From Escherichia coli (GTDB lineage: Bacteria; Pseudomonadota; Gammaproteobacteria; Enterobacterales; Enterobacteriaceae): a DNA stretch of 64,000 bases. This document shows, piece by piece, positions 42,280-45,944 of this stretch (position 1 is its first letter; every line of letters starts with the position of its first letter). The position numbers and the translations under genes were made by a program. The stretch lies in NCBI RefSeq assembly GCF_048403405.1, contig NZ_CP183129.1; one strand, given 5' to 3'. The notes under the pieces were generated by a model. It ran no database searches. It was not told the DNA's origin and saw nothing but the letters and a program-made list of their open reading frames with translations.

Positions 42280-43245
42280 ATGAGTAAACCCATTGTGATG
42301 GAACGCGGTGTTAAATACCGCGATGCCGATAAGATGGCCCTTATCCCGGTTAAAAACGTGGCAACAGAGCGCGAAGCCCTGCTGCGCAAGCCGGAATGGA
42401 TGAAAATCAAGCTTCCAGCGGACTCTACACGTATCCAGGGCATCAAAGCCGCAATGCGCAAAAATGGCCTGCATTCTGTCTGCGAGGAAGCCTCCTGCCC
42501 TAACCTGGCGGAATGCTTCAACCACGGCACAGCAACGTTTATGATCCTCGGCGCTATTTGTACCCGCCGTTGTCCGTTCTGTGACGTTGCCCACGGTCGC
42601 CCGGTAGCTCCGGATGCCAATGAACCAGTGAAACTGGCGCAGACCATTGCCGATATGGCGCTGCGTTATGTGGTTATCACCTCCGTTGACCGTGATGACC
42701 TGCGCGATGGCGGTGCCCAACACTTTGCGGATTGCATTACTGCCATTCGGGAAAAAAGCCCGCAAATCAAAATTGAAACTCTGGTGCCGGATTTCCGCGG
42801 TCGTATGGATCGTGCTCTGGATATTCTGACCGCCACACCACCAGATGTATTCAACCATAACCTGGAAAACGTACCGCGTATTTACCGTCAGGTACGGCCT
42901 GGTGCGGATTACAACTGGTCGCTGAAGCTGCTGGAACGCTTTAAAGAAGCGCATCCGGAAATCCCGACCAAGTCTGGTCTGATGGTGGGTCTGGGTGAAA
43001 CCAATGAAGAAATTATTGAGGTAATGCGCGACCTGCGCCGTCATGGTGTGACGATGCTAACGCTGGGGCAATATTTGCAGCCAAGCCGCCATCACCTGCC
43101 GGTTCAACGTTACGTTAGCCCGGATGAGTTCGACGAAATGAAAGCCGAAGCGCTGGCGATGGGCTTTACCCATGCTGCATGCGGTCCGTTTGTCCGCTCG
43201 TCTTACCACGCCGATTTGCAGGCGAAAGGGATGGAAGTTAAGTAA
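42280..43245 (+). CDS. lipA: Lipoyl synthase (radical SAM)
   Basis: 321 aa; CPNLAEC and CTRRCPFC cysteine clusters. Confidence 0.95.
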
Positions 43246-43275
43246 TCCTGTAATAATTACTTACATCTATCTGAT

Positions 43276-43306
43276 AAAAAACCCGCTTTTTGAAGCGGGT
43301 TTTTTT
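43276..43306. terminator. Bidirectional terminator between lipA and tatE
   Basis: AAAAA-ACCCGCTT-tttg-AAGCGGGT-TTTTTT. Confidence 0.7.
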
Positions 43307-43346
43307 GTATCGAACAAGATATTGAGGGAGCGTCCTGCTCGCCACG

Positions 43347-43550
43347 TCACTCTTTATGAGAGAGCTTTTCAGCCTGAAGATCAACGTCTGCGCCTTTTTT
43401 CGCCGCAGCATCGTCATCATTCATCGCCTTCTTGAACCCTTTAATGGCCGCTCCAAGGTCTCCGCCCAGCGTACGTAACTTCTTAGTCCCAAACAGCAGA
43501 ACGACCAGCGCCGCAACTACCAGCAGTTTGGTAATACTAATCTCACCCAT
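43347..43550 (-). CDS. tatE: Sec-independent protein translocase TatE
   Basis: 67 aa; recognised as TatE (TatA paralog). Confidence 0.92.
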
Positions 43551-43678: not shown

Positions 43679-44473
43679 TCATAATAATTGCGGCGGCGCA
43701 AAGCGACGGTTGTTTAAAACGGGAAGTTGCGCGCGCACCTGACGCACACGTTCGGGCGTCACTTCCGCCATAATGAGTGCAGGCATTTCTGACGCTGCCG
43801 CAATGGTGACGCCAAAGGGATCTATAATCCGGCTTTGCCCGATATTTTTGTTCCCGCACTCCCCCGCCGCCACCATATAACAGGTGGTATCCAGCGCACG
43901 AGCGGCAAGCAACGTTGACCAGTGATGCTCTTTGAGCGGCCCACGAACCCAGGCGGCAGGAAGTACCAGGATTTCAGCTCCCTGTAATGCCTGTGCCAGC
44001 GCCAGCTCTGGAAAGCGTAAGTCATAACAGGTCATCAGACCGACCTTCATCCCTTCCACCTCCAGTAACGGAGCTATTTCATTACCAGCATCAACATGGC
44101 GTGATTCCTGAATGGCAAATGCATCATAGAGATGCAGTTTGGCATAACGGGCGACGATGTTTCCTGCCTGTAGCGCCACCAGCATATTCCATGCGCGCCC
44201 CGGCGTTGAAGGAACATGAATCGTCAGAATTGTCGTCATCATGTTACGTTTACTTTCTCGCCGTAAACGTCCGAGGAATTCGCCTTCCAGCAGCTGTGCT
44301 GATTTAACCGATAGATCTGCATCATGATCATCGCGCGCCAGCAATGCTTCCGGCAGGACAAACAGCGATACGTCGTTTTCCGCCGCCTGCGCCATCAACG
44401 AGGCACAAATCTCAGCGTTCTTTTCCCACACAGATGTAACAGCAAACTGTCCTGCGGCAACCAGCATTGCCAC
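43679..44473 (-). CDS. ybeM: C-N hydrolase (nitrilase superfamily) protein, apparently intact
   Basis: 264-aa uninterrupted ORF at the position of ybeM, which I recall as a pseudogene in K-12. Confidence 0.7.
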
Positions 44474-44562
44474 CTCCTCCTGTCAGAGTCGTAAAATTCG
44501 CCAACGGCGATTATTCGGCGTTACACTTATCACTCATACAAATCAAATAGCAGGATTTTGCA

Positions 44563-44946
44563 GTGTTACAACTTCTTTTAGCAGTTTTTATTGGCGGTGG
44601 TACGGGAAGCGTGGCGAGATGGCTGTTAAGTATGCGATTTAACCCGCTGCATCAAGCGATTCCGTTGGGGACGCTGGCTGCAAACCTGATTGGGGCATTC
44701 ATCATAGGAATGGGATTCGCCTGGTTTAGCAGGATGACGAACATTGATCCAGTGTGGAAAGTATTAATCACCACCGGATTTTGTGGCGGTCTAACAACCT
44801 TCTCAACATTTTCGGCAGAAGTGGTGTTTTTGTTACAAGAGGGCCGCTTTGGCTGGGCGTTACTGAACGTTTTCGTCAACCTTTTGGGGTCTTTTGCCAT
44901 GACCGCACTGGCTTTCTGGCTGTTTTCCGCCTCAACCGCACACTAA
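44563..44946 (+). CDS. crcB: Fluoride channel CrcB/FluC
   Basis: 127 aa; GTG start; small four-helix membrane protein. Confidence 0.9.
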
Positions 44947-44951
44947 AGACC

Positions 44952-44980
44952 AAAAAAAACCCGCTGATTAAGCGGGTTTT
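44952..44980. terminator. Bidirectional terminator between crcB and cspE
   Basis: A-tract, CCCGCT-gatta-AGCGGG hairpin, T-tract. Confidence 0.65.
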
Positions 44981-44999
44981 GAATTCTTGCTGACGTATC

Positions 45000-45209
45000 T
45001 TACAGAGCGATTACGTTTGCAGCAGAAGGGCCTTTGGCACCGTTAGTGATTTCGAACTCTACGCGCTGACCTTCAGCAAGAGTTTTAAAACCATTAGTCT
45101 GGATTGCAGAGAAGTGTACGAACACGTCTTTGCTGCCGTCTTCCGGAGTAATGAAACCGAATCCTTTGGACTCATTAAACCACTTAACGTTACCTTTAAT
45201 CTTAGACAT
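45000..45209 (-). CDS. cspE: Cold-shock-domain protein CspE
   Basis: 69 aa from [20 protein letters not shown]; ORF-track N-terminal extension rejected. Confidence 0.95.
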
Positions 45210-45383
45210 CAAAATTACCTTTACATGAAAAATAGACACAAATGCTGTGTCGGTTACCAGTACACCAATTGTGGTACGCTTTGTCCAGTGCAACTTTACT
45301 AAAAAGTGATAAAAGTCGCGTTATTTTTGATGTTACTTATTTTAGTTATTGATTTTAAAGAAGTTACTAAAACTTCATTTGTC

Positions 45384-45944
45384 TCAAAACTGAAAGCGCA
45401 TCCAGGCAAAGTACACATTGCCATTGTTGTAGGTACCCGGAATGTAGGTCATCTGAAAAGTCACTGGGCCATAACCCACGGAGGCCAATGGCAGTAGAAC
45501 CGGGAGAGGGATGTAATTCCAGTTATCGCGTGCCGTTACGCCAGCGGTGAATCCCAGACCTAAATGAAAATTTTCATCCGCCAGCGGTCGCCAGGTACTT
45601 TCCCATCCGTATCCGGCAATCGGTTCCCATTTGTTCCACGAGTCCTTAAATGCCATGGCATACAGGCCATGCCAGTTTCCTTTTTCATCCCAACGCGACT
45701 GACCAAAACCGCCACCCCACGGTCGCTCGTTATAGCGATCGGTTTTTTCTTTGTCGTAAGCGAAACGTGCATGCCAGGTGATGGCAGGAATATATAAATC
45801 ATAATGTTCAGGCTGTTGCCAGGTTTGTGCAATATTTTCTCTAAACGTTGTCATCCACTCATCTGCGTTAGCAAAAACTTTACCAACGCTGATTAACTGA
45901 ATAAAAACAAAGGAAAAGATAGCGACATATTGACTCACGTTCAT
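45384..45944 (-). CDS. pagP: Lipid A palmitoyltransferase PagP
   Basis: 186 aa from an internal ATG (MNVS...) with signal peptide; outer-membrane beta-barrel enzyme. Confidence 0.9.

Follow-up and report, generated by a model that had tools for sequence, protein, structure and literature searches.

Deaminated glutathione (dGSH) arises when transaminases accidentally strip the amino group from glutathione. Amidases of the nitrilase superfamily employ a Cys nucleophile, which forms a thioester acyl-enzyme, together with a Glu that acts as the base and a Lys that stabilises the intermediate. The dGSH amidase, the products of which are 2-oxoglutarate and Cys-Gly, reportedly has its primary source in Peracchi et al. 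2017 (PNAS 114:E3233). The eukaryotic Nit1 family is active on dGSH (PMC5714238). In E. coli, YbeM has been equated with NIT1/dGSH amidase and YafV with NIT2 (PMC8788347), and YafV is described as a separate Nit2-type enzyme of this species (PMC8711792). YafV (omega-amidase; NCBIfam NF007757) belongs to the same superfamily as YbeM and is likewise described as a metabolite-repair amidase, but its substrate is 2-oxoglutaramate.

The closest described relative of the ybeM gene in the window, i.e. the 64,000-nucleotide stretch of E. coli DNA analysed here, is that of O157:H7 (WP_000959109.1, found also in many other strains and assigned to NF033621). It occupies the same locus, crcB-ybeM-tatE, and encodes a 262-aa protein that is identical to the window protein at 261 of 262 positions and has the same catalytic residues. 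The sole amino acid difference, R124H, separates the window protein from those of both O157:H7 and AMA1167; codon 124 is CAT in the window (44096..44098, minus strand), and at the DNA level there are also synonymous substitutions, and the ribosome-binding site of the window gene is extended by an insertion of 3 bp. His124 is also carried by CFT073 and UTI89, and the position varies in orthologs (H/N/Y/L/S). The ybeM gene of K-12 (b4581) lies at the orthologous locus and shares about 98.4% DNA identity with the window over 961 bp, but it differs by a frameshift and two amino acid substitutions (see below). Eukaryotic Nit1 proteins (NitFhit, 1ems; yeast Nit2, 4h5u and 4hgd) belong to the common CN-hydrolase fold family and have an aligned Glu-Lys-Cys triad, but the relationship is distant, and YbeM has neither the Fhit fusion nor the insertions of the yeast protein.

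The window gene is very probably an intact chromosomal gene of an ordinary E. coli strain, which represents the ancestral majority allele of ybeM and encodes a dGSH amidase.

Reading frame, start site and surroundings

An uninterrupted frame with no internal stop codon was found at 43679..44473 on the minus strand, as the first-pass annotation had stated. The length of 264 aa given there was counted from a GTG (44471-44473) used by the ORF finder, and this part of the claim did not stand. The GTG overlaps the Shine-Dalgarno run AGGAGGAGG (44473..44481, minus strand), which was located upstream of the ybeM ATG by alignment with K-12. In the identical DNA of E. coli 7/2, the RefSeq start is the ATG at 44467 (262 aa, WP_001305561.1), and the YbeM orthologs are all 262 aa long with an N-terminus of the form M-[LFY]-VAAGQF. 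Given the position of the GTG inside the Shine-Dalgarno run, the RefSeq start in 7/2 and the length of the orthologs, the coding sequence of this putative Nit1-type deaminated glutathione amidase of the nitrilase superfamily runs from 44467 to 43679 (43679..44467, minus strand) and comprises 262 codons and the stop, 789 nt in total. The ATG is two codons downstream of the GTG; hence, the earlier coordinates were correct within six bases.

The Shine-Dalgarno run is strong and is located 5 nt from the ATG. As compared with K-12, AMA1167, O157:H7 and CFT073, a 3-bp GGA/AGG insertion at 44479-44481 turns AGGAGG into AGGAGGAGG. A 61-mer containing the insertion had an exact match in 846 of the 5426 complete E. 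coli genomes, and the insertion is without counterpart in K-12 and most E. coli. The intergenic lengths indicate that UTI89 shares the insertion and that CFT073 and K-12 lack it.

In the ORF listing, ybeM is flanked by tatE (43347-43550, minus strand) with lipA beyond it (42280-43245, plus strand) on one side, and by crcB (44563-44946, plus strand) on the other, with cspE and pagP beyond crcB. The order crcB-ybeM-tatE-lipA is conserved in K-12, 7/2, O157:H7, CFT073 and UTI89, and in all of them ybeM occupies the orthologous position between crcB and tatE. Several E. coli chromosomes, those of MS 69-1 and TUM1226 among them, match a 20-kb stretch around ybeM with 100.0% identity. The surroundings of ybeM are ordinary core genome.

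A search with Rfam models revealed no fluoride riboswitch upstream of the divergent crcB, where it could overlap the 5' end of ybeM. The cspA thermoregulator model (RF01766) matched cspE and its leader (44952-45394, minus strand) with 123.9 bits versus a gathering score of 78, as expected for a cspA-family gene. The gap that separates lipA from tatE (43173-43372) gave matches on both strands to a large number of unrelated leader and small RNA models, all below their gathering scores. Rather than membership of any such family, the matches probably reflect a hairpin or terminator shared by the convergent lipA and tatE genes.

Active site and predicted substrate

The window protein matches the Pfam family PF00795 (CN_hydrolase) with E = 4e-41 and 141.4 bits, as compared with a gathering cutoff of 23.2. 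The match covers protein residues 5-247 and profile positions 2-255 of 256, and places the protein in the nitrilase superfamily. NCBIfam NF033621 (de_GSH_amidase, deaminated glutathione amidase), a narrow curated model of the 'exception' type, is matched end to end (positions 2-260 of 260) with 451.5 bits versus a cutoff of 355. Together, the two matches argue that the frame at 43679..44473 is not a chance ORF. Two other NCBIfam models gave scores far below their cutoffs, namely NF007757 for YafV/Nit2 omega-amidase (61.5 bits versus 249), so that the window protein is not a YafV member, and NF043013 for the Yersinia-type deaminated glutathione amidase (82.7 bits versus 500). In E. coli 7/2, where the DNA is identical, the gene is annotated as 'deaminated glutathione amidase', and the exact window protein belongs to a 3131-member cluster of the same name. 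Intact ybeM is already known and annotated in thousands of genomes.

The closest solved structures by sequence are C. elegans NitFhit (1ems, E = 1.7e-29) and yeast Nit2 (4h5u, E = 1.1e-26). The Glu-Lys-Cys triad to which the first-pass annotation had drawn attention is present as E40/K110/C147, equivalent to E54/K127/C169 of 1ems. Glu40, predicted to be the general base, is encoded by GAA at 44348..44350 and aligns with Glu54 of 1ems; Lys110, the catalytic lysine, is encoded by AAA at 44138..44140 and aligns with Lys127; and Cys147, the predicted nucleophile, is encoded by TGT at 44027..44029 and aligns with Cys169 (all on the minus strand). These three codons were verified by direct reading of the DNA. 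In the alignment with 4hgd, the structure of the yeast Nit2 C169S mutant, Cys147 falls on the introduced Ser. Glu121 (GAA, 44105..44107, minus strand), the second conserved glutamate of the superfamily, aligns with the Glu of the '(M/K)ES' motif in 1ems and 4h5u. Glu40, Lys110, Glu121 and Cys147 are invariant among the orthologs from E. fergusonii, Citrobacter, Leclercia and Salmonella.

Based on what is known of the family, YbeM would be a 262-aa cytoplasmic Nit1-type amidase that clears dGSH. With Glu40 acting as the general base, Cys147 would attack dGSH at its amide carbonyl, and Lys110, together with Glu121, would stabilise the tetrahedral intermediate. Cys-Gly would then leave, and hydrolysis of the resulting thioester acyl-enzyme would release 2-oxoglutarate. 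Thus drawn, hydrolysis of dGSH by YbeM would be a metabolite-repair step.

The substrate is assigned here from the curated family model and Peracchi et al. 2017, and we infer dGSH on that basis. The intact protein may be an active amidase with a different physiological substrate, such as 2-oxoglutaramate or another alpha-keto-acid amide. In support of this, the dGSH assignment is drawn from sequence, the nitrilase superfamily is known for transfer of annotations beyond the evidence, and the window protein also matches other amidase models weakly. However, the narrow dGSH amidase model was passed well above its cutoff (451 versus 355), the omega-amidase model was failed, and the best solved relatives, NitFhit and yeast Nit2, are of the Nit1 type. 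E. coli moreover has its own Nit2-type enzyme in YafV (PMC8711792, PMC8788347). A substrate other than dGSH is accordingly considered improbable, and dGSH is retained as the predicted substrate of YbeM.

The codon-67 frameshift and other disrupted alleles

The statement in the first-pass annotation that ybeM is an interrupted pseudogene in K-12 proved accurate. In NC_000913.3, ybeM/b4581 is annotated as a 788-nt pseudogene, and the gene of an MG1655 derivative is labelled 'frameshifted' by PGAP. Alignment of the window with K-12, which the first-pass annotation had put forward as the way to locate the disruption, traced it to a single G that is missing in K-12. In the window this G is present at 44268 (minus strand; coding nucleotide 200) as the second base of the Arg67 codon CGT. 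The K-12 frame consists of 66 native residues followed by nine aberrant ones (LYGEKVNVT) and a stop; the 75-aa product keeps Glu40 and loses Lys110 and Cys147. K-12 ybeM additionally has V33A and V37A (the equivalent codons in the window are at 44357-44359 and 44369-44371).

The distribution of the deletion was assessed by exact matches to short sequences in 5426 complete E. coli genomes. Of these, 860 (~16%) contain a 61-mer that bridges the K-12 deletion. The intact 62-mer from the window was found in 3569, the rest differing from it by a SNP or the deletion. A 61-mer that includes V33A and V37A had an exact match in 365 genomes, and those listed are K-12 and laboratory strains derived from it. 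By subtraction (860 versus 365), ~495 genomes have the deletion but not the V33A/V37A changes, which means that roughly one in ten complete genomes is frameshifted without the marker substitutions of K-12. An example is the stool isolate 300709 from Mozambique, ybeM of which is annotated as 'frameshifted' and lacks V33A/V37A; its allele is the intact AMA1167 allele minus one G.

The frameshift is a natural polymorphism, neither a laboratory artefact nor peculiar to K-12. As it occurs in ~495 non-laboratory carriers, it predates the domestication of K-12, and the two Val-to-Ala changes arose after it in the K-12 lineage. This derived 1-bp deletion in codon 67 would destroy the enzyme both in K-12 and in the related natural isolates that carry it. 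K-12 ybeM has been treated as a pseudogene and used as a neutral integration site (PMC7242477). Given this use and the frameshift in ~16% of the complete genomes, ybeM is evidently dispensable in some backgrounds.

Disruptions of ybeM other than the codon-67 deletion exist but are rare. In O166:H15 isolate JNE21-003 (L006, 3820-5912), the 3' end of ybeM harbours an insertion of the IS21-family element ISEc62. In E2863 (L008, 1745-2958), IS1203 is located between crcB and an intact ybeM.

A protein search further revealed that truncated YbeM proteins of E. coli from draft and metagenome assemblies form large clusters (P0058, P0060, P0078 and P0123). The 214-aa protein of P0060 implies the loss of one A from an A5 run at codons 207-208, and the 215-aa protein of P0058 a +1 frameshift near codon 51. 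A synthetic 64-mer with the A5-to-A4 deletion, which doubled as a negative control for the genome counting, had no exact match in the complete genomes, all 5394 matching genomes being at 98.5%. The P0058 representative occurs in only three contigs, at least one of which has aberrant neighbours (tatE called at 95 aa and lipA broken). Because the A4 form is absent in complete genomes and the neighbouring genes are broken, P0058 and P0060 were rejected as major alleles; the truncated clusters probably stem from errors in homopolymers or in assembly, or else represent rare variants. UTME-9, in which the product is named 'nitrilase-related carbon-nitrogen hydrolase', was also rejected as a differently annotated allele, as all genes around it are flagged as frameshifted and the assembly is of low quality.

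Ancestry, selection and expression of ybeM

Full-length 262-aa orthologs, aligned with 100% coverage, were found in E. fergusonii (83% identity to the window protein), Citrobacter (78-84%), Leclercia (73-76%) and Salmonella (71-74%), and full-length 262-aa orthologs are present in Enterobacter and Kosakonia too. Since such orthologs occur across the Enterobacteriaceae, the intact form of ybeM is ancestral and the deletion is derived. The view of the first-pass annotation that a functional ancestral allele has been retained is thereby supported, with function predicted from the sequence. What is 'retained' is the usual condition of E. coli, as ~84% of the complete genomes are without the K-12 deletion.

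A comparison of six intact E. coli alleles (those of the window, AMA1167, O157:H7, E2863, CFT073 and UTI89) revealed 25 codons with purely synonymous differences and four in which the encoded amino acid varies, and the pairwise pN/pS is 0-0.15. Intact ybeM is under strong purifying selection. By contrast, the K-12 lineage has acquired two non-synonymous and no synonymous changes since the frameshift. Though the numbers are small, V33A and V37A suggest relaxed constraint after inactivation.

An open frame could also belong to a gene that is silent or decaying in the window strain, a pseudogene that is not yet disrupted. Three observations would fit such a gene: a search of the 95 bp between crcB and ybeM revealed no consensus sigma-70 promoter for ybeM, K-12 and ~495 other genomes have lost the gene with no evident harm, and IS insertions in or beside it are known. 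Against it stand the low pN/pS, so different from the pattern of change in K-12, the invariance of the catalytic residues as far as Salmonella, and the strong Shine-Dalgarno run close to the ATG. In addition, ybeM transcripts have been measured in the related strain CFT073, where they are regulated and fall to 0.30-fold under NO (PMC5320621). It is thus very unlikely that ybeM is silent or decaying in the window strain, and the gene is regarded as an intact one maintained by selection.

In CFT073, an NsrR ChIP peak was mapped within ybeM, at 345 bp, and the peak was seen in K-12 too (PMC5320621). In the window, ATGATGCATTT at 44117-44127 (minus strand; coding nucleotides 341-351) corresponds to the NsrR half-site AANATGCATTT with one mismatch, and sits where the published peak was placed. 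With one mismatch allowed, AANATGCATTT has five matches in the window as compared with ~8 expected by chance, and the motif alone is not significant; only the coincidence of the putative half-site with the published peak is notable.

A 47-aa out-of-frame ORF is located inside ybeM at 44074-44217 (minus strand). In a library screen, a 29-bp ybeM fragment that encodes the start peptide of this ORF gave rise to filamentation when overexpressed; other out-of-frame ybeM fragments have the same effect, but full-length ybeM does not (PMC6206680). Filamentation by the out-of-frame fragments is probably an overexpression artefact.

The codon-67 frameshift may have spread in the K-12-related clade because loss of dGSH repair was selected, as opposed to neutral decay; alternatively, loss of ybeM could alter the expression of tatE, located downstream, via the reported intragenic NsrR site. 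Either would have some physiological consequence. We consider this unlikely; if true, populations of E. coli would differ naturally in their metabolite-repair capacity.

By itself, an intact ybeM matters little: this is a core gene of E. coli, and intact is how it is normally found and annotated. What the analysis adds is modest: the allele with the 'K-12' frameshift is a natural one and is carried by ~16% of complete genomes. K-12 is therefore atypical at ybeM, and K-12 together with the other frameshifted genomes that make up this ~16% would be unable to make the predicted repair enzyme. Metabolic models and metabolite-damage experiments based on K-12 would accordingly be without a dGSH amidase that most wild and pathogenic E. 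coli are predicted to have.
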